From NCBI GenBank assembly GCA_001821055.1, contig MHRT01000005.1, forward strand, positions 43,533 to 107,532: DNA of 64,000 nt, in the 5' to 3' direction. How positions within the stretch are numbered: position 1 is the stretch's first letter; every line of letters starts with the position of its first letter. Source of the stretch: Candidatus Taylorbacteria bacterium RIFCSPHIGHO2_12_FULL_45_16. GTDB lineage: Bacteria; Patescibacteriota; Minisyncoccia; Phycocordibacterales; PALSA-1337. This document shows positions 3,731 through 33,665 of the stretch, in pieces. Position numbers and translations under genes: made by a program. The notes under the pieces are model-generated. The model made no database searches and was not told the DNA's origin. It saw only the letters and a program-made list of their open reading frames with translations.

Positions 3731-3896
3731 TTCAATACATCTCCATAACCGTGACATAGCTTTTCATTACTATTTTCACGGTTATGTTGGCAAAATCGAG
3801 AATAGCTATAATGCTAATCTATATGATGTACTTGTCGCAAAAAGTAGTTAAAAAGTTTATATGTTGAAATTTTGTCTATTATTTTTTTCCATATTA

Positions 3897-4271
3897 TTAT
3901 ATTTGGTTATTTCTTAATCTCTTTTTTTGCCAGCCAATAGCAAGGGGCAAGATAAAAGTCAAAGCGTAATATAAATACACATCCAGTTTATAATATCCGT
4001 CCGCCGGGTTGAACATTTTTACGAGAAAGAAATAATCAAAAACAGCGGCGATCAAAACCCAGACAACGGCCATTTGCACATAATACTTGAAAGAATCAGC
4101 TTGAACTTTTTTAAATAATACCCAGAGCGCCATAACTATTCCGATTGGCATGATAACCCAGCCGAGCAAGTTTTGTGGCACCGCCTTGAAAAGCAGGATG
4201 CCAAGCGCGTAGCCGATAAGCCAGAGCATAAAACCCCAACCCAAGGCATCTCTGTAAAATTGTTTTGTCAT
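3897..4271 (-). CDS. Small integral membrane protein (about 4 TM), function unknown
   Basis: Four hydrophobic segments. No recognisable catalytic motif. Confidence 0.5.
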   Translation of the reverse strand: MTKQFYRDALGWGFMLWLIGYALGILLFKAVPQNLLGWVIMPIGIVMALWVLFKKVQADSFKYYVQMAVVWVLIAAVFDYFFLVKMFNPADGYYKLDVYLYYALTFILPLAIGWQKKRLRNNQI

Positions 4272-4394
4272 AAAATTATTCCTTAGATTTATTTTCTCGA
4301 CCTATTTTATTGTATCACTTTTGCTACCGAATTTCTTTCGAACGCTTCGGTCAAAAACAAAAGCGTGGCTCAATACCTATTCAAAAACCAATAT

Positions 4395-4414
4395 CAGGTG
4401 CTTGCTTTGGCACC
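4395..4414 (-). terminator. Candidate intrinsic terminator (AGGTGC-loop-GCACCT hairpin, T-rich on minus) downstream of the 4501..5013 gene
   Basis: 6 bp GC-rich stem. On the minus strand it is followed by GATATTGGTTTTTG. Confidence 0.35.
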
Positions 4415-4438
4415 TAAAAATCACGATTTAACACAGAT

Positions 4439-4480
4439 GCGGGGAGTGTGGGACGATATCCGAATAGCGTTAAGCATAAC
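4439..4480. repeat. Copy 2 of the conserved 3'-UTR element of about 45 nt
   Basis: GCGGGGAGTGTGGGACGATATCCGAATAGCGTTAAGCATAAC matches 3684-3730 at about 85% identity. Confidence 0.6.
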
Positions 4481-4500
4481 ATCTATTTGATAAATGCTTT

Positions 4501-5013
4501 CTATTTGGTCATTACTGACGTTGAGGAACTTAGAGCTGGCATAGCGGAGGTAAAACTAGATCTGAACTGATTATCGTCAATTTTGACCGTCTGTGTCATC
4601 AGTGAGGCCGTGACAATAGGAACTAGTGCCGAAACTATTATGGCAATTATTGATATCCAAATGGCTCGATTAGATAACGTCCTTGCTTCTCTAGCGTTTT
4701 CTCTTGCAAATTTCAGTTCCAAAAAATCTATAAAGGTAAATTCTGCATCAAAAGTTAGCATATACATATTATCTGGCGAATTTGCTTGGGAATGGTTACC
4801 GTGTATAAAAAGAAATATGGTTTCACCTTTCGTACTATCATTCCAATTGGAATGATCGCATGCATTTTTAAAGTGTCGCATCACAATACTCCTTTCCCAG
4901 TCTTCTAGATTGAGTTTATTGTTATCAAGTATATCTGCAGACTTAAAACCCTTAGGATATTTTAGGGCAAGTTCGATAACTCTAATATAAAGGCTTTTCT
5001 CCGGCTCTTTCAC
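4501..5013 (-). CDS. Hypothetical protein with a soluble N-terminal domain and a single C-terminal TM helix (tail-anchored)
   Basis: Long ORF. C-terminal segment AIWISIIAIIVSALVPIVTASLM. No recognised family. Confidence 0.45.
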   Translation of the reverse strand: MKEPEKSLYIRVIELALKYPKGFKSADILDNNKLNLEDWERSIVMRHFKNACDHSNWNDSTKGETIFLFIHGNHSQANSPDNMYMLTFDAEFTFIDFLELKFARENAREARTLSNRAIWISIIAIIVSALVPIVTASLMTQTVKIDDNQFRSSFTSAMPALSSSTSVMTK

Positions 5014-5133: not shown

Positions 5134-5811
5134 TTACCAAGGATTGGTGTAAGTGAACAGGACGCCGATCTTCCTCCTGTCTCTGTAATCGCTGGACTCA
5201 TAGACCGAGCGCAGGTGCATCTCGAAGTGCGGATTCAACATCCGGAACTTCATCTTCAGCGAGCGACCATTCTTGGTACTCCACGGGGAGCCATAGAAGC
5301 CGCCGAGAACCCTGCTGTCCGGGAGGACAAGATCTGGGAAGAGAATCAGTGCGGTAGGAGTTTTCTGAAACTCCTCAATTGCGGCGCACCCAACCTCGAA
5401 TAGCGCCTCCGCCTGCTTCGATCGGCACTCATCCTCGTTAGGGAAGCGTTTGTGCCAGTCGAGGTTAGCAACCGCTCTCACGAGAAGTCGCTTTTCCGCT
5501 TCCATGACCACGGCGATTTTGTCTTTCGCCGGTTGTTCGTCTTCGCCGAGTAGGAGTTGAGCGTTGGTGCAGATGCAGGTATCCTCCCTGTACATCATTG
5601 CCTTCACAAAATTATCCACTGCGGCGACCGATTGCTCCGCGTTCTGCGTCTCAAAATCTTGTTTCTCCGGACTGAGTCCGCAGATGCAGTTTTTGGGATA
5701 GTACTTCTCGATGAGGCGGAAGCCGCCATCATAGTTGTACTGGAATGTGCCACGAGAATTGAGGCACTTTTTGAGGGCTGTTCCGAGCTCTTGCCATTGT
5801 TCTTTTTTCAT
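5134..5811 (-). CDS. Hypothetical Cys-rich protein. GC appears elevated (not computed). No recognised family.
   Basis: 225 aa ORF with several Cys (CICG, CIC, C...C). GC appears higher than in neighbouring genes. A terminator-like hairpin (CCCGCGATCATTGCTGACCGCGGG, about 5048-5071) follows on the minus strand. Confidence 0.45.
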   Translation of the reverse strand: MKKEQWQELGTALKKCLNSRGTFQYNYDGGFRLIEKYYPKNCICGLSPEKQDFETQNAEQSVAAVDNFVKAMMYREDTCICTNAQLLLGEDEQPAKDKIAVVMEAEKRLLVRAVANLDWHKRFPNEDECRSKQAEALFEVGCAAIEEFQKTPTALILFPDLVLPDSRVLGGFYGSPWSTKNGRSLKMKFRMLNPHFEMHLRSVYESSDYRDRRKIGVLFTYTNPW

Positions 5812-6063
5812 AATCTATCGTTTCTGTGTTTATTGTTTGTTTGGTTAAATCTAGCTCTCAAAAGGCAAAATTCTACCTTTTCGGAGCTAGACTTAGCTGT
5901 TTCAATGACCTTGACCTTCTGGTACAAGTATAGCATAGTTGAGTATATATGTCAATACTTTGGCGATTTCGTCAAATATGTGCTGTGGCATGGCTCTGTT
6001 AAGCCACCTTGTAAACCACGGTCGGTATTCGCCCCCGCGCCTACAGCACTTTCGGAAAGTGAG

Positions 6064-27868: not shown

Positions 27869-28054
27869 AGAGGTATTGTAGCAAATTATAGGGGAAGTGT
27901 AATAGGGTTTAAGAGTAGGCGACACAGTATGTGATATATTTGTTGACGCAGAATTTTCTAAAGCCTTGACTTTTGTCTTATTTCAGTATACAATCCTATC
28001 ATATAAACCAATAAGAGCATCTTTCCTTTTTTATGGCTTATTTAAGCCATATCA

Positions 28055-29329
28055 ATGGGAATGCGAATATTTATGAAAGATATTATCCACACAATCTCAT
28101 ATGCCGTCATTGGTATCATAACGCTTATACTTATCTGCGGTAGCGTTGTTTTGAACCCAAATCAAGCACGCGCTGATTACGGCTATTATGGTACTCCGAC
28201 ATACGATTATGATTATTCATACAACCGTCATTCTCAATATAATAACAACGGCCCGTTGCAGGTCTCGTGTTATCCGATGCCACTCTCGGCTCGTACAGGT
28301 GAATCCATTAGCTGGGTCGCTTCCGCTTATGGAGGCAACAATTCCTACTATTACACCTGGACGGGAACAGACAGCTTGTCTGGCTACGGATCTTCTGTAA
28401 GCAAAACTTACTATTCTTCTGGTTACAAAAGCGCCAGCGTGACGGTCACCTCCGGCGGGCAGACAGTTTCCAAAAATTGCGATGGTATAGTCAACGTCTA
28501 TGGTAATTCAAATTATAATTACGATTACAACTATAATTACAATTATTACCCACAAAATTATAATTACTATTCCCCATTGAGTGTCACATGTAGTGTCGGT
28601 AGCACCTATACGAATAGTGGCAATTCAGTAACTTGGAATGCCTATCCCTCCGGTGGTAATGGTTCGTACAGCTATAGCTGGACCGGTACCGATGGTCTCT
28701 ATGGGTCAAGTCAATCAGTCTATCGTACCTATTCGTATCCCGGCACGAAAACCGCTTCCGTCACTGTCTATTCAAATGGCCAGTCTATAACGCAGTACTG
28801 CGGTTCAGTCAATGTCGGTGGCTATGGATATGTTAATTACAACAACAACAACATCAACAGCAATAATAACGGTCTTAGCATTGCCTGTTATTCGGATCCA
28901 ACTACTGTCCGAGTCAATCAGCCTGTCACATGGAGATCTGAAGTGACCGGAGGCATCTCTCCGTACACATATTCATGGACTGGTACAAGTGGTCTTTCAG
29001 GTAGCGATAGTTCGGTCATCAAATATTATGATACAGTCGGTGAAAAGAGTGCGGTCATCACTATCAGGTCAGCTGATGGCAAGACGGCAGCGAGTGCGTG
29101 TTCCACAGCACTGACTGTTCGTAGTGCCTCCGTGGTCACTCCTACGCTGCCGGCAACCCCAGCACAACCTGTAGTTCAACCACCTGTCCAACAGCAAGAT
29201 GAGAACGCTTTGTCAGCCGCTGCTCTCTTCTCTCTGAAAAATGTTCCTTGGGGATGGGTCGCTATTATGATTATTCTGGTTCTCTTTGCAACGGTTGTCT
29301 ATCTTATATTCAATCGTCAAAAGATTTAG
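28055..29329 (+). CDS. Surface protein with three Ig/PKD-like repeats (each with a Cys pair), Asn/Tyr-rich linkers, a Pro/Gln-rich stalk and a C-terminal TM anchor
   Basis: N-terminal TM/signal segment. Three repeats of ...SCYP/TCSV/ACYS...WTGTDGL...C... separated by NYNYDYNYNYNYY tracts. C-terminal hydrophobic helix. Confidence 0.6.
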   Translation: MGMRIFMKDIIHTISYAVIGIITLILICGSVVLNPNQARADYGYYGTPTYDYDYSYNRHSQYNNNGPLQVSCYPMPLSARTGESISWVASAYGGNNSYYYTWTGTDSLSGYGSSVSKTYYSSGYKSASVTVTSGGQTVSKNCDGIVNVYGNSNYNYDYNYNYNYYPQNYNYYSPLSVTCSVGSTYTNSGNSVTWNAYPSGGNGSYSYSWTGTDGLYGSSQSVYRTYSYPGTKTASVTVYSNGQSITQYCGSVNVGGYGYVNYNNNNINSNNNGLSIACYSDPTTVRVNQPVTWRSEVTGGISPYTYSWTGTSGLSGSDSSVIKYYDTVGEKSAVITIRSADGKTAASACSTALTVRSASVVTPTLPATPAQPVVQPPVQQQDENALSAAALFSLKNVPWGWVAIMIILVLFATVVYLIFNRQKI

Positions 29330-29367
29330 AAGTAGTGAGCGAGAAAGCAAGTTGAAAGGAACAAAGG

Positions 29368-29390
29368 CCTTCTATTTCAGAAGGTTTTTG
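29368..29390 (+). terminator. Intrinsic terminator after the PKD-repeat gene
   Basis: CCTTCT-ATTTC-AGAAGG hairpin followed by TTTTTGTTTT. Confidence 0.5.
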
Positions 29391-29487
29391 TTTTGGATGG
29401 CTTGAGGTCCTGAATTATCTGAAATGAGATTATTATATGGCTCAAAATATAGGTTTTTTCAGATATATTTTTATTACACAATACTAC

Positions 29488-29518
29488 TTGACAATATGTA
29501 TACAAATATGATATACTA
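29488..29518 (+). promoter_or_regulatory. Strong sigma-70-like promoter (TTGACA-18-TATACT) driving the small GC-rich cassette
   Basis: Consensus -35 at 29488-29493 and -10 at 29512-29517, about 85 nt upstream of the 29601 ATG. Confidence 0.5.
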
Positions 29519-29600
29519 TAAAAGTAGAAGGTGAGTATGGATTTTGACGGTGAATAGGAACAGAGTCAATCACGATCTCTGACAACCAAAGGAAATTTTT

Positions 29601-29759
29601 ATGAAAAAGTTTGAGTTTGCACTGGCGTGTAAGGCCACGAATCATGGCTTGGCGCGCATCGCGCTCCACATTCTGGCGCTAATAGAGCGCAAGGAAAGCT
29701 GGGTTCGCGCGAAGGCGGGAATTTGCCGGGAACTCCACAAGAGTGTTCGGCTGATGTAG
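29601..29759 (+). CDS. 52 aa hypothetical ORF (first gene of the GC-rich pair). Absent from the ORF track because it is under 60 aa.
   Basis: ATG preceded by AAAGGAAATTTTT. Protein MKKFEFALACKATNHGLARIALHILALIERKESWVRAKAGICRELHKSVRLM. High GC. Lies 30 nt upstream of the next ORF. Confidence 0.3.
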   Translation: MKKFEFALACKATNHGLARIALHILALIERKESWVRAKAGICRELHKSVRLM

Positions 29760-29789
29760 GCAGTCAACAATAATTCCGAAAGGCAGTTT

Positions 29790-30128
29790 ATGGCAACAAC
29801 CACAAAGTTCGTCGGTGACGATTATGAGGCTGCCTACGCAAAAGTACTGGGCGGCACGGTGAATGGGGGACTCGGGGATGGTGGCAGAGATGTCATCGTT
29901 CCAGAGATCGGTGGGGTGCAGGTGAAAGCCTCCTCCGCTGGTGCCAAGGAATTCTTGGCAGTCTCATTGAAGCGGAAGCAGTTCATCCCTCTTTGTGTTG
30001 GCGAGCCCAGCACGAAGGAGGAAGTCCTGGATTCCCTCAAGAAGTTCGGAGCGTGGGTCGGGAAAGAGATTCCCAACCGCGCAAAGCTTCTCGCCGGCAT
30101 CTCGCAAATTCGCTTGACGCTCATGTGA
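29790..30128 (+). CDS. 112 aa hypothetical protein, GC-rich. A possible restriction-endonuclease-like small fold was considered but cannot be supported.
   Basis: ORF with GDGGRDVIVPEIGGVQVK. No confident family assignment. Confidence 0.4.
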   Translation: MATTTKFVGDDYEAAYAKVLGGTVNGGLGDGGRDVIVPEIGGVQVKASSAGAKEFLAVSLKRKQFIPLCVGEPSTKEEVLDSLKKFGAWVGKEIPNRAKLLAGISQIRLTLM

Positions 30129-30293
30129 CTACAACCAGCGCCCGTCTCGAGTGATCGAACGGGCGCACAACATTCGCCAAGAAAGGAGGTACCTGCAAAA
30201 ACCAACTAACATCGCGCCCAGCCGGAAACGGTTGGGCGCTTTCACATCCCAATGGACTTTTCCCGATTGAATTTTAGTGCAAATGTGGACTTC

Positions 30294-32048
30294 CTATTTC
30301 CTCTCCTTGATTTCCTCCTGTAACTTTTTCAATACTTCTTCAACACTCAATTGCCCAACCTGACCCTTATCGCGACTCTCCAATGTGACTTTACCAGCCT
30401 CGATATCTTTTTCACCCAGAATGATCGTGTAGCAGACGCGGTCGTTCTTGGCGTTGCGGATCTTCTTGCCAAATCCATTGTTGGACAGATCAATTTCGGA
30501 GCGGATCATCACTTGACGCAGAGAGTCATGAATCTTTTGGGCGGCTTCGTAGTGATTTTCCAAAACGGGAATGACGCGGACTTGGACAGGTGAGAGCCAG
30601 AGAGGGAAATTGCCGCCATAATGTTCGATGAGGAAGCCGATGAAGCGTTCATGGGTGCCGAGCGGAGCACGGTGAATGCAGAGAGGGGTTTTGAGCGAAC
30701 CATCTTTGTCTGTATATGTCAGGCCAAATCGAGCTGGCACGGCGAAGTCAACCTGGTTTGTAGCTAGGGTGAACTCGCGACCGATGGCCGACCAGACTTG
30801 GACATCAATTTTCGGACCGTAGAAGGCGGCTTCGTTGGCGACTTCAACAAAAGGGATCTTCGAATTAACCAGAACTTTGCGGACCATGTCCTCGGTCTTC
30901 TTCCAGAGTGCTGGCTCATTGACAAATTTCTCGCCGAGACGATTCGGATCATGAGTTGAAAAGCGCATGATGTATTTTTCCACGCCGAAAATCCTGAAGT
31001 ATTTCAGGTAGAGGTCATTGACGGCTCGGAACTCGTCGGCGAACTGTTCTTCGGTGCAATAGATGTGGGCATCGTTCATCTGGAGCGAACGGACGCGCAT
31101 CAAACCGAAAAGTTCACCGGATTTCTCGTGACGATAGTTGGTCCCGTATTCGGCCAAGCGCAAAGGCAGATCGCGATAGCTCTTGGGCCTAGCGGCGTAG
31201 ATCTTGTGATGGTGCGGACAGTTCATGGCTTTCAAATAGTATTTGCCGCCTTCGTATGTCATCGGGGGATACATAGACTCCTCGTAATACGGCAAGTGGC
31301 CGCTCTTCAAATACAGCGCATCTTTGGCGATGTGGGGACTGCGGACGCGGACATAGTTGCCTTTGAATTCGGTCTCTTTGGCCAGCTTTTCTAATTCCTC
31401 GATGAGCACGGCGCCGTTCGGTAGCCAGAGGGGAAGTCCGGGGCCGACATCATCGTCAAATTCAAAAATGTCGAGCTCCTTGCCAAGTCTTCGGTGATCG
31501 CGCTTCTCGGCTTCTTTCATCATGGTTTCGTAGGCGTCCAATTCTTCTTTTGTTGCAAAAGCCAGGCCATAAATGCGGGTCAATTGCGTATTCTTCTCAT
31601 CGCCACGCCAATATGCGCCAGCGAGGCGCGAGAGTTTGAATGAGTCCGAAGGAATCTCCTTGGCCGGATTTTCATTGTGTCCGCCGCGGCAGAGGTCGGT
31701 GAATTTGCCGGCGGTATAGAGGGTGATCTTTTCACCCTTGTCGATGATCTCATCGATGAGTTCGAGTTTGTATGGATTGTCTTTGAATAAGTTGCGAGCC
31801 TCTCTTTCGCTGACTTCCTTGCCTGCCATTTCTTTCCACGAAGGCAGGAGCTTGTGCATCTTCTTCTCGATATCTTTGAGGTTCTTTTCGGTGATCGGAG
31901 TTTTGAATTCAAAGTCGTAATAGAAGCCGTTATCTATGGCCGGCCCGATGGTTGGCTTGGTTTCTGGGAAGAGTTCGAGCACTGCTGCGGCAAGGAGGTG
32001 GGCCAGAGTGTGGCGCATATGCTGGAGTGATTCGGAAGGGGGGTTCAT
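30294..32048 (-). CDS. thrS: Threonine--tRNA ligase (lacking the N-terminal TGS domain)
   Basis: Editing-domain HxxxH (MRHTLAHLLAAAV). Class II catalytic core (HRDLPLRLAEYGTNYRHE, FTLATNQ). C-terminal anticodon-binding domain. Confidence 0.9.
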   Translation of the reverse strand: MNPPSESLQHMRHTLAHLLAAAVLELFPETKPTIGPAIDNGFYYDFEFKTPITEKNLKDIEKKMHKLLPSWKEMAGKEVSEREARNLFKDNPYKLELIDEIIDKGEKITLYTAGKFTDLCRGGHNENPAKEIPSDSFKLSRLAGAYWRGDEKNTQLTRIYGLAFATKEELDAYETMMKEAEKRDHRRLGKELDIFEFDDDVGPGLPLWLPNGAVLIEELEKLAKETEFKGNYVRVRSPHIAKDALYLKSGHLPYYEESMYPPMTYEGGKYYLKAMNCPHHHKIYAARPKSYRDLPLRLAEYGTNYRHEKSGELFGLMRVRSLQMNDAHIYCTEEQFADEFRAVNDLYLKYFRIFGVEKYIMRFSTHDPNRLGEKFVNEPALWKKTEDMVRKVLVNSKIPFVEVANEAAFYGPKIDVQVWSAIGREFTLATNQVDFAVPARFGLTYTDKDGSLKTPLCIHRAPLGTHERFIGFLIEHYGGNFPLWLSPVQVRVIPVLENHYEAAQKIHDSLRQVMIRSEIDLSNNGFGKKIRNAKNDRVCYTIILGEKDIEAGKVTLESRDKGQVGQLSVEEVLKKLQEEIKERK

Positions 32049-32219
32049 GGATAATACTATAGCAACTTTTTGTCAGGCGAGGGAGTGGGTTGACATACTA
32101 TTATTATTATGCTAGTAATTATACGGGTTGTTCTCAACAACTGAAACGATCATATTTCCCCCAAAAACTTAAAGTAAGGGAAGCTTGGTCACAACAAAAA
32201 CAACAAACAACGGTAAGCT

Positions 32220-33377
32220 ATGAGTATAAAACTGCTGAAAGCCGCGATTGACATATTCAAACTCCCGACGACTACAAAAACGGAGGAGATTATCATCCTG
32301 CGGGGTGTGGTTGATCCTGAGTCACTGAAAGAAATCAAGGTCGACAAGTACCAACGTGAGGTTCTGTCGTCGGCAAAAATCAAGGCTTTGATGGTCGCGC
32401 TCGAGTCATCGAAGGTTCCAGACATCGAACTCGGTATGCGTGGCGAACGGTATCAAGTCCGAAAGCCTGACGGCGAGGAAGTTTACTTTCTCCAGGATGA
32501 CGTATTCGTCATTGATGGTCTGCAACGGATAACAGCCGCTCTGAAGCTTCTTCAGGAGAAGTTCGACTGCAAACCTCGCATCGGTGCTGTTGTCCATTTT
32601 TCCACGAGTTTTGACTGGGAGCGAGAGCGTTTTCGTATCCTGAATCAAGAGCGCACAAAACTCGACGTCAATGTGTTTCTGCGTAATTTGCAGACCGATA
32701 GTGAAGCGATTGACATGATTTTTCGTCTCTGCAACGATTCGTCGTTCATCCTTCAAAATCGCGTCAAGTGGTCGCAGAACATGCTCCGTGGGCAGCTTAT
32801 TCCTGCCCTGCTGTTGTGCAAAGTCACTGGTGTGTTGCACTCGAGGTTCGGCCCGGGCCGTACCAGCAGTTGTCACGAACTGGCGTCCGCTCTGGATACG
32901 ACCATGAAGACCGTGGGTCGTACTACCATGCGCGATAACATCAAGACTTTCTTCGAGGTCATCGACGAATGCTTTGGTGTCAAACGGATTGTGATGGTGC
33001 ATGCGGCGTCCTACATGCGCAGTACATTCCTGTTGTCTTTGGCCGATATCTTCACCAATCATACCGACTTCTGGCGCGGGACTCGACTTTTCGTCGAACA
33101 AAAGTTGCGGTGCAAGATCGCCAAGTTCCCAATCAATGATCCGGAAATCGAAAGGTTGTCGGGTGCAGGAGGTCAGGCGCGTGCGATCATGTACGAGATC
33201 ATGCTCAAGGCGATCAACAGCGGCAAGCGTAAGAAGCGGTTGAAGGGGGTTGATGGTCTGAACCCTGCAAAAGATACCAGCGACAGTGGTGACGACGGTG
33301 TTACCATTCCAGAAGCCCCGGCTCCAACCACAAATGAGAGTTCTGGTCGGAAAACCTTGGCTCGTATGGGCCTGTAA
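32220..33377 (+). CDS. ParB/Srx-fold DGQHR/DUF262-like domain protein (DndB-like), with a basic low-complexity tail
   Basis: KYQREV...FVIDGLQRITAALKLL resembles the F/YQR...IDGQ(H/Q)R(L/I)T motif of the DndB and DUF262 (GmrSD N-domain) families. GC-rich. Precedes a 91 aa ORF and a terminator. Confidence 0.5.
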   Translation: MSIKLLKAAIDIFKLPTTTKTEEIIILRGVVDPESLKEIKVDKYQREVLSSAKIKALMVALESSKVPDIELGMRGERYQVRKPDGEEVYFLQDDVFVIDGLQRITAALKLLQEKFDCKPRIGAVVHFSTSFDWERERFRILNQERTKLDVNVFLRNLQTDSEAIDMIFRLCNDSSFILQNRVKWSQNMLRGQLIPALLLCKVTGVLHSRFGPGRTSSCHELASALDTTMKTVGRTTMRDNIKTFFEVIDECFGVKRIVMVHAASYMRSTFLLSLADIFTNHTDFWRGTRLFVEQKLRCKIAKFPINDPEIERLSGAGGQARAIMYEIMLKAINSGKRKKRLKGVDGLNPAKDTSDSGDDGVTIPEAPAPTTNESSGRKTLARMGL

Positions 33378-33389
33378 TAAGGAGGAAAT

Positions 33390-33665
33390 ATGAGTCAAAA
33401 ACTTACGATTGAAGAGTTCACTCTTCTTGCGGTAGATAAACTACCCAAGGGTGATAAACAGATGATTCATACCGTTTACTCTGGCTTCAACGAAGCTTTC
33501 CGGGAGTATTTTCCTGGCAAGGATCCTGTTGCTGAAGTTAACCAACTGGCCAAAGAAGGGAAAATCAGTTTCCGACTGTGTCGGGGTGGGGCGATCATCG
33601 CCAAGCCCGGGGTAATCGAATCAGTACCGAAATCAAAGGACACCTTACAGAAGATGGGCGTTTAA
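33390..33665 (+). CDS. 91 aa hypothetical protein, co-transcribed partner of the DGQHR-like gene
   Basis: Starts 13 nt after the upstream stop, preceded by AGGAGG. A terminator follows directly. Confidence 0.4.
   Translation: MSQKLTIEEFTLLAVDKLPKGDKQMIHTVYSGFNEAFREYFPGKDPVAEVNQLAKEGKISFRLCRGGAIIAKPGVIESVPKSKDTLQKMGV

Follow-up and report, generated by a model that had tools for sequence, protein, structure and literature searches.

What is encoded by the small GC-rich cassette that stands next to thrS in the genome of Candidatus Taylorbacteria bacterium RIFCSPHIGHO2_12_FULL_45_16, and do its two genes belong together? The locus lies in a 64,000-nucleotide (nt) stretch of contig MHRT01000005.1, which we call the window, and holds an open reading frame (ORF) of 52 amino acids (aa), orf52, followed by one of 112 aa, orf112. 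An initial annotation had taken the two for an orphan cassette resembling a toxin-antitoxin (TA) or other small accessory module. The outcome of our analysis is a solid upgrade of annotation, from hypothetical protein to probable PD-QxK nuclease in an accessory cassette, and not a mechanistic discovery. The genomes of Patescibacteria, or Candidate Phyla Radiation (CPR), are tiny, about half of their genes lack an assigned function, and their repertoire of defence systems and mobile elements is, to our knowledge, poorly known. In the following, family A denotes orf112 and its homologues, family C denotes orf52 and its orthologues, and B, D and E are other small genes at related loci. L numbers denote loci of relatives, and P0062 is the family-A protein at L017. 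Relatives were grouped by ThrS identity, with cassette-bearing loci recovered at 81–86% and L025, L027 and L031 standing at 70–76%.

Two real genes behind a conserved promoter

We found that orf52 and orf112 are real genes: both have homologues, from which they differ most often at third codon positions. Nine homologues of orf112 share 61–76% identity with it, and orthologues of orf52 (51–54 aa, 40–58% identical) are present in L005, L007, L013 and L105, where the ORF, the start codon and the Shine-Dalgarno (SD) sequence are kept. A search with the 52-aa query alone matched only itself, and a profile of four sequences gained one more lineage. In comparison with L005, differences at codon positions 1, 2 and 3 number 23, 11 and 60 in orf112 and 18, 14 and 36 in orf52. 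GC contents at the three positions (GC1/GC2/GC3) are 0.59/0.43/0.66 in orf112, 0.57/0.40/0.68 in orf52 and 0.56/0.34/0.62 in thrS, and the pattern of GC1 > GC2 < GC3 appears for both cassette genes in the ORF frame only. Homologues and a coding signature, whose absence the initial annotation had set beforehand as its refutation, are thus both present. The arrangement that it described was also confirmed: the ORFs encode the peptides it quoted, are separated by 30 nt, and run convergently with thrS (30294–32048, minus strand).

Could the locus instead specify a structured non-coding RNA, with the ORFs arising by chance? A strong promoter, a GC-rich transcript and 3' hairpins would also be typical of a stable RNA gene. 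Against this, start, stop and SD of both ORFs are preserved in several lineages, third-position substitutions are in excess, the codon-position pattern is confined to the ORF frame, and the orf112 product is predicted to fold with high confidence (see below). An Rfam scan of 27900–32300 gave no family, only a chance Phe_leader match on the upstream terminator (E = 0.54, far under the gathering score); ARAGORN placed no tRNA or tmRNA at the cassette; and the 5' leader is unstructured (fold z-score of +0.68). A non-coding RNA or riboswitch was ruled out on these grounds, and the idea that the ORFs are no genes, scarcely conceivable to us, is effectively refuted already. Two further candidates were rejected. 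The two ORFs share one frame with a single TAG and 30 nt between them, which might suggest stop read-through, a pseudogene or a split gene, but the L005 copies are out of frame (8001 − 7805 = 196 nt), indicating that the shared frame is a coincidence. An antisense ORF of 123 aa (29834–30205, minus strand) has codon-position GC values of 0.46/0.61/0.62 and is a shadow of orf112.

The cassette genes had been judged GC-richer than their neighbours by eye, and computation bears this out: 0.547 for orf52 and 0.560 for orf112, versus a mean of 0.465 for 45 larger ORFs of the window (standard deviation 0.033, maximum 0.528). The orphan or foreign origin that was read from this richness does not hold. 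GC3 values of the two genes (0.655 and 0.679) are like those of the genes for ribosomal protein L21 (0.642), ThrS (0.622) and a 225-aa ORF (0.673), all native and probably highly expressed, and GC of the family-A gene tracks that of its host across lineages, from 0.365 in a host of 0.372 up to 0.56 in the window. Gly and Ala, moreover, account for as many as 26 of the 112 residues of the orf112 product. High GC of the cassette therefore reflects native codon bias together with Gly/Ala content and is no mark of recent transfer.

The promoter that the initial annotation had placed in an AT-rich spacer of about 270 nt, TTGACA-18-TATACT, likewise stood up to scrutiny. The spacer between the stop of the upstream gene for a PKD-domain protein (29329) and the ATG of orf52 (29601) measures 271 nt with a GC content of ~0.30; the −35 box occupies 29488–29493 and the −10 box 29512–29517, 18 nt apart, with a TGn just before the latter. 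Sites matching 11 of 12 consensus positions, as this one does, occur five times in the whole window versus 1.4 times expected from shuffles, and two of the five have the TG extension. We found the promoter preserved in L005, L007 (twice), L010/L012, L013 (twice), L014 and L105. With the window this makes nine copies in seven distinct cassette types, of the common form TTGACA-N18-TGnTATA(C/A)T, and this promoter is present upstream of the homologous cassette in every Taylorbacteria-clade relative examined. Because of this conservation, the orf52 promoter is no chance match. Minus-strand promoter-like sites over the cassette are weak only (9 of 12 positions).

Family A as a probable new branch of the PD-(D/E)xK superfamily

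Next, we investigated what orf112 encodes. Its product has the same sequence as a protein annotated as hypothetical on contig MHRZ01000001 of Candidatus Taylorbacteria bacterium RIFCSPHIGHO2_02_FULL (GCA_001821115.1), and many metagenome assemblies from aquifers contain the orf52/orf112 locus as well. No match was found in Pfam, PHROG, PADLOC or NCBIfam, either for this protein or for 50 members of its family. When 1.84 billion representative proteins were searched exhaustively with a profile, a family of 64 clusters at 50% identity emerged, mostly free-standing proteins of 107–162 aa, and all members from named genomes belong to Patescibacteria. Family A is undescribed and has been seen so far only in CPR/Patescibacteria.

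An alignment of 50 family members, 28–55% identical to orf112, reveals that D34 is invariant, that D30, G32, Q44, K46, G71, P73 and G87 are conserved in at least 90% of members, and that the column of E13 has Glu as its consensus. The key residues in orf112 itself are E13, D30, G32, D34, Q44, K46, G71-E-P73, G87 and W89, with the putative catalytic residues spaced as D34-x9-Q44-V-K46. The AlphaFold (AF2) model built from this alignment is of high confidence (predicted local distance difference test score, pLDDT, of 90.9; predicted template modelling score, pTM, of 0.80) and has the predicted topology α-β-β-β-α-β-α-β-α. It comprises a helix at residues 5–20, a two-residue strand at 23–24 (23–25 in the first model), strands at 35–37 and 41–46, a helix at 49–62 and a strand at 68–70, followed by two further helices and a strand. 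In this model E13 maps to α1, D34 to the beginning of β2 and Q44-V-K46 to β3. The α-β-β-β-α-β core of the PD-(D/E)xK superfamily, with its Asp at the N-terminus of β2, (D/E/Q)-x-K on β3 and, often, an acidic residue on α1, is thereby reproduced, and the predicted arrangement of residues is that of PD-(D/E)xK catalytic residues.

A QxK signature on β3 of an αβββαβ core marks the PD-QxK, or Mrr-like, subgroup, which takes in NhoI and other small BisI/NhoI-family enzymes that stand alone (PMC11347163, PMC12707154). The motif of family A resembles that of subgroup members such as the catalytic domain of EcoKMrr, the C-terminal domain of MspJI, and BisI/NhoI. In contrast to these, none of the 50 members matches Mrr_cat (PF04471), an N-terminal domain reading DNA or its modification (winged helix, SRA) is lacking, and conserved GEPG and FGAWVG motifs are added. 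At 112 aa, orf112 encodes a protein shorter than any characterised Mrr-like PD-QxK member that we know of. On the strength of motif and model, family A is probably a new family of the PD-(D/E)xK superfamily, a PD-QxK-like nuclease outside Mrr_cat. Our favoured reading, which we put forward tentatively by analogy with these enzymes, is that A may be an active, oligomeric, metal-dependent PD-QxK endonuclease that discriminates foreign or modified DNA, a type IV-like stand-alone defence lodged in a hotspot of variable genes.

The thrS site as a hotspot of variable genes

We then compared the thrS site among relatives. In all loci recovered at 81–86% ThrS identity a cassette lies between the PKD-protein gene and thrS, with inserts of 759–3081 nt. 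With P for promoter and T for terminator, the order is P-C-A-(relic of E)-T in the window and L005, P-A-B-T in L009–L012 and P-A-T in L014. L007 has P-A-B-T, then a duplicated promoter with ~90 nt of leader, then C; L013 has P-A-B and then P-C-D-E; and L105 has P-C-D-E and no A. By contrast, the site is empty in L025 (ThrS 76%), where the stops of the PKD-protein gene and thrS are 3 nt apart, and likewise in L027 and L031 (ThrS 70–71%); across these three loci the convergent genes are 0–55 nt apart. None of A, B or C was found within 3.5 kb of thrS in 80 loci at 56–76% ThrS identity. Empty sites and differing gene content thus support the proposal of an accessory module with a dedicated promoter at the 3' edge of thrS.

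Among relatives, identities are 62–75% for A, 59–75% for the PKD protein and 81–86% for ThrS. Since A is about as conserved as the PKD protein and less so than ThrS, long vertical residence is suggested, and the pattern fits one ancient insertion followed by vertical inheritance. The window cassette descends from a larger array whose genes were replaced or lost, B and D-E having been lost in this lineage: in DNA alignment the last 35 nt of E (AAGAAAGGAGGTACCTGCAAAAACCAACTAACATC versus AACGAAAGGAGGTCATTGCAAAGACTAGCTAACATC) can still be recognized downstream of orf112, and a terminator hairpin comes after them at the corresponding position. An earlier candidate, AAAGGAGG at 30181 as a leftover of the ribosome-binding site of B, was dropped because the alignment assigns it to the 3' terminus of E, which has been lost.

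The gene pairings are informative as well. L010/L012, L014, L015, L016, L021 and L022 have A but lack C, and L105 conversely has C but no A; both in L007 and in L013, C follows A-B under its own promoter. The expectation that homologues would co-occur as a pair elsewhere is therefore contradicted, as they are also found apart, and orf52 and orf112 are separable and form no obligate TA pair. The usual partner of A is B, a very basic protein of 77–97 aa with a terminal motif ...REAIVQ..A...P.LI.PYL.RIKR, whose gene overlaps the stop codon of A by 14–17 nt and is missing from the window. A-B pairs are also present in distant Patescibacteria (L015, L021, L022), so that A-B is a widespread pair. 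Family C, where present, is always the first gene behind its promoter. The orf52 product has an isoelectric point of 10.3 and a net charge of about +7, with a hydrophobic N-terminal half and a basic C-terminal half; it matches nothing in Pfam, PHROG or PADLOC. Its Kyte-Doolittle maximum over 19 residues is 1.0, under the transmembrane range, versus 1.6–2.0 in the L005 and L007 proteins, so that some orthologues alone approach what a type I toxin, a small membrane peptide paired with an antisense RNA, would show. D is a protein of 169 aa, and E, whose gene overlaps that of D, is a 76-aa CxxC...CxxC protein (L105 5197–5917, L013 4957–5683). D, E and B have no match in Pfam, PADLOC or the Protein Data Bank (PDB), and homology of D to A was rejected (hhalign probability 0.1%).

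These observations bear on whether A could be a nuclease toxin (DNase or tRNase, CdiA-CT-like) that is neutralised by B, with C having taken over in the window. A small bicistronic layout is indeed present, as in type II TA systems: two small co-directional genes 30 nt apart, one promoter, a common terminator, a patchy distribution with empty sites, and a location between convergent genes. A and B overlap and occur together in at least four distant lineages, both candidate partners (B and C) are small and basic, and three of nine promoter spacers carry a palindrome, a possible operator. A domain of family A also stands at the C-terminus of the 733-aa P0062, as in polymorphic toxins. On the other hand, A is alone in L014 with its D34, Q44 and K46 motif intact, it lacks B in the window and L005, and C lacks A in L105, so the genes are not inherited as a pair in the manner of type II systems. 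TA, immunity and PADLOC models match none of A, B or C, the best being ParD for one B sequence (E = 0.05, under threshold), and C has no recognizable DNA-binding domain. The L014 contig is only 6 kb, and a partner could be encoded elsewhere. Compared with the CdiA-CT nuclease toxins (EC869, 4g6u; Bp1026b, 4g6v; YPIII, 4zqu) and their CdiI partners, A shows no sequence similarity, would be cytoplasmic and free-standing without a delivery domain, and in the window is without B. A layout of large delivery protein and immunity gene is approached by P0062 alone, with its C-terminal domain, and no immunity-like gene follows it on the same strand, whereas the orf112 product is free-standing. We consider a toxin unlikely, and the TA-like pair of the initial annotation is not borne out for orf52 and orf112.

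As a separate observation on P0062 (L017 3005–5206), its family-A domain lies at the extreme C-terminus, after a coiled coil and a hydrophobic region rich in Gly and Ala, and no gene stands downstream of it on its strand. By analogy, this architecture is polymorphic-toxin-like.

Whether A could be a domesticated housekeeping nuclease, a structure-specific repair or recombination enzyme like Hjc, RecU or YraN, was also considered. Proteins of 112–160 aa with a PD-(D/E)xK core resemble Hjc-type resolvases, and the best PDB profile match of A, aligned over the catalytic D-x12-QVKSS, is I-Ssp6803I (2ost), an enzyme whose own nearest structural relative is Hjc (PMC3384342). Throughout the clade with 81–86% ThrS identity, selection is purifying and synteny is stable, the promoter is strong, and codon bias is like that of native highly expressed genes. 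The neighbourhood includes rmuC, recR, dnaB and a UvrD/PDDEXK helicase-nuclease gene, and an xerC-like gene in L015 and L016. However, for a core gene of Patescibacteria we would expect far more than 64 clusters at 50% identity in 1.84 billion representative proteins, A is absent beside thrS in the 80 more distant loci and at the empty sites, the L105 site holds C-D-E only, and neither structures nor models of Hjc, RecU or YraN are among the matches. We regard this alternative as decidedly unlikely.

Outside the thrS site, A is found within the S10 ribosomal-protein operon, where it lies antisense in the interval from rplB to rpsS (L021), beside an xerC-like gene and rpsO (L015/L016), and between dnaK and a uracil-DNA glycosylase gene (L022). 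In L021 (and L020), at 3828–4803, A-B runs on the opposite strand of an otherwise canonical S10 operon, a very unusual place for an insertion.

Such insertions at conserved genes (the thrS 3' end, antisense to rplB-rpsS, rpsO), the empty sites and the cassette's own promoter might be taken to indicate a selfish, free-standing gene for a homing-type endonuclease. Such an enzyme would cleave a conserved housekeeping sequence of genomes that lack the cassette, and repair following DNA uptake would then copy the cassette in. Yet A has been under long purifying selection with vertical inheritance, and decay is the usual fate of homing genes once fixed. The insert has neither repeats at its flanks nor the signature of a target site, and housekeeping neighbours are the norm in a genome of ~1 Mb. 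With E = 0.66 the match to I-Ssp6803I falls short of statistical significance, and the gene for that enzyme lies within a tRNA group I intron, unlike that for A, which stands free and has a promoter of its own. A 21-nt, 81% inverted repeat at the ends of the insert was rejected as mobile-element termini, since it is present in none of the relatives and is judged a window-specific chance. Homing appears very unlikely.

An islet had also been noted on the other flank of thrS, and this flank is variable too: between thrS and rmuC, L014 has 42 nt and no islet, L010 has a 56% homologue, and L005 and L007 have other genes. In the window this flank (32220–33665) carries an islet of a 385-aa protein and a 91-aa ORF; the former has a weak, sub-threshold GmrSD_N/DUF262/ParB-like match (E = 6e-4).

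Cumulatively, the site flanking thrS, an essential gene, is a small hotspot of variable genes with one common promoter. It resembles known defence and variable-gene hotspots in its fixed position between the PKD-protein gene and thrS, in being empty or filled with alternative small-gene sets, and in the variable second flank with its weak DUF262/GmrSD_N-like gene. It differs from them in that PADLOC is negative, no integrase or transposase accompanies the Taylorbacteria cassette, and one promoter is common to all variants.

A tentative model for the cassette

How, then, might a defence nuclease of the type we favour operate? The conserved extended −10 promoter would most likely give one bicistronic mRNA, with orf52 followed by orf112, and transcription would end at GC-rich hairpins common to thrS. 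A would be the functional core, a single-domain endonuclease with a putative active site of E13, D34 and Q44-x-K46, and would probably act as a homo-oligomer like other nucleases of similar size. It would spare the host's own nucleic acids, because its catalytic residues are kept where B or C is lacking (both in L014, B in the window and L005). Its target would most likely be foreign or modified DNA, as for type IV (Mrr-, BisI- and NhoI-like) restriction enzymes, and C would be an optional accessory, a regulator or adaptor, and no obligate partner. We infer nuclease activity, target, defence role and the role of C alike.

Several points weigh against this model. Unlike Mrr and MspJI, A possesses no domain for DNA recognition. 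For a nuclease, the combination of a very strong, constitutive promoter with codon usage of high expression is unusual. The recurrent overlapping B and the single C-terminal fusion (733 aa) suit a toxin with immunity better. Profile comparisons were no more supportive: the 50 members gave nothing at E < 0.1 against Mrr_cat and other PD-(D/E)xK models of Pfam and NCBIfam, nothing under E = 0.66 was obtained from the PDB, and no PADLOC defence model matches A. Finally, no family-A member is present in the viral, phage and plasmid collections IMG/VR, INPHARED and PLSDB, a result that led us to reject a phage or plasmid origin of the cassette and that is in itself neutral on a defence role.

A bolder version of the type IV-like defence model, to which we would give little credence, holds that the thrS site may be a hitherto undescribed, Patescibacteria-specific plug-in system. 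A fixed strong promoter and C would there be combined with interchangeable effectors (A with or without B, or D-E), forming a compact defence or addiction cassette whose nuclease gene could also invade conserved operons (S10, rplB-rpsS), possibly by homing after natural DNA uptake.

The present results define a family of ~64 clusters of a probable mini restriction-fold nuclease outside Pfam, NCBIfam, PADLOC and PHROG and identify its partner B. If A proves to be a nuclease specific for sequence, structure or modification, its 112 aa would place it among the smallest stand-alone enzymes of the kind and make it a possible reagent. If the cassette proves to be a defence or addiction module, it would be a CPR-specific addition to a list built almost wholly from cultivated bacteria.

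Non-coding features and minor observations

The features of the cassette are collected in Table 1. The region 3' of orf112 folds with a z-score of −5.4. Hairpin 1 stands directly after the orf112 stop and is missing from the alignment with L005, the closest relative of identical gene order. Hairpin 2 is overlapped by a minus-strand terminator-like site, and a hairpin of other sequence occupies its position in L005, L105, L013 and L007; it is probably a terminator common to the cassette and the convergent thrS. The start of the leader, GGTGAGT, is partially conserved among relatives.

Table 1. Positions of cassette features in the window
Feature	Position	Strand	Basis or remark
Whole cassette, 964 nt	29330..30293	+	between the stops of thrS and the gene for a PKD-domain membrane (surface) protein
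Hairpin with T-run ggccttctatttcagaaggtttttgtttt, terminator of the upstream PKD-protein gene	29367..29395	+	terminator scan; inside the AT-rich spacer
Sigma-70 promoter, extended −10, TTGACA-N18-TGaTATACT	29488..29517	+	11/12 consensus plus TG
5' leader, SD-like AAAGGA at 29588–29593	29518..29600	+	without significant structure
orf52 (family C), 52 aa	29601..29759	+	orthologues; third-position substitution excess
orf112 (family A), 112 aa	29790..30128	+	homologues; AF2 model; conserved motif
GC-rich hairpin 1, GCGCCCGT...ACGGGCGC, no T-run	30138..30166	+	particular to the window genome
Relic of the 3' end of a family-E gene	30179..30213	+	DNA alignment of window, L005, L105 and L013
Terminator hairpin 2 GCGCCCAGCCGgaaaCGGTTGGGCGC, then TTTC	30214..30239	.	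inverted repeat I10 and fold

The −35/−10 spacer of the window promoter contains a perfect 8-nt palindrome, TGTATACA (29497–29504), and palindromes stand at similar spacer offsets in L007 (TAGGTACCTA) and L014 (ATAGCTAT). Three of nine promoters thus carry one, versus about 7% expected per promoter, a weak hint that the palindrome may be an operator.

In L007 a stretch of ~90 nt in all, made up of the promoter and the beginning of its leader, is duplicated near-identically, before A-B and before C (3837–3925 and 4642–4730). The A-B and C units would then be co-regulated, and the duplication could be a substrate for rearrangements among relatives.

The other TG-extended promoter among the five sites of the window, TTGACA-17-TATACT on the minus strand with its first base at 5955, precedes the 225-aa ORF (5134–5811) used above for comparison. 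Pfam gave no match for this ORF, whose GC3 exceeds that of every other larger ORF, and it may encode another highly expressed protein.

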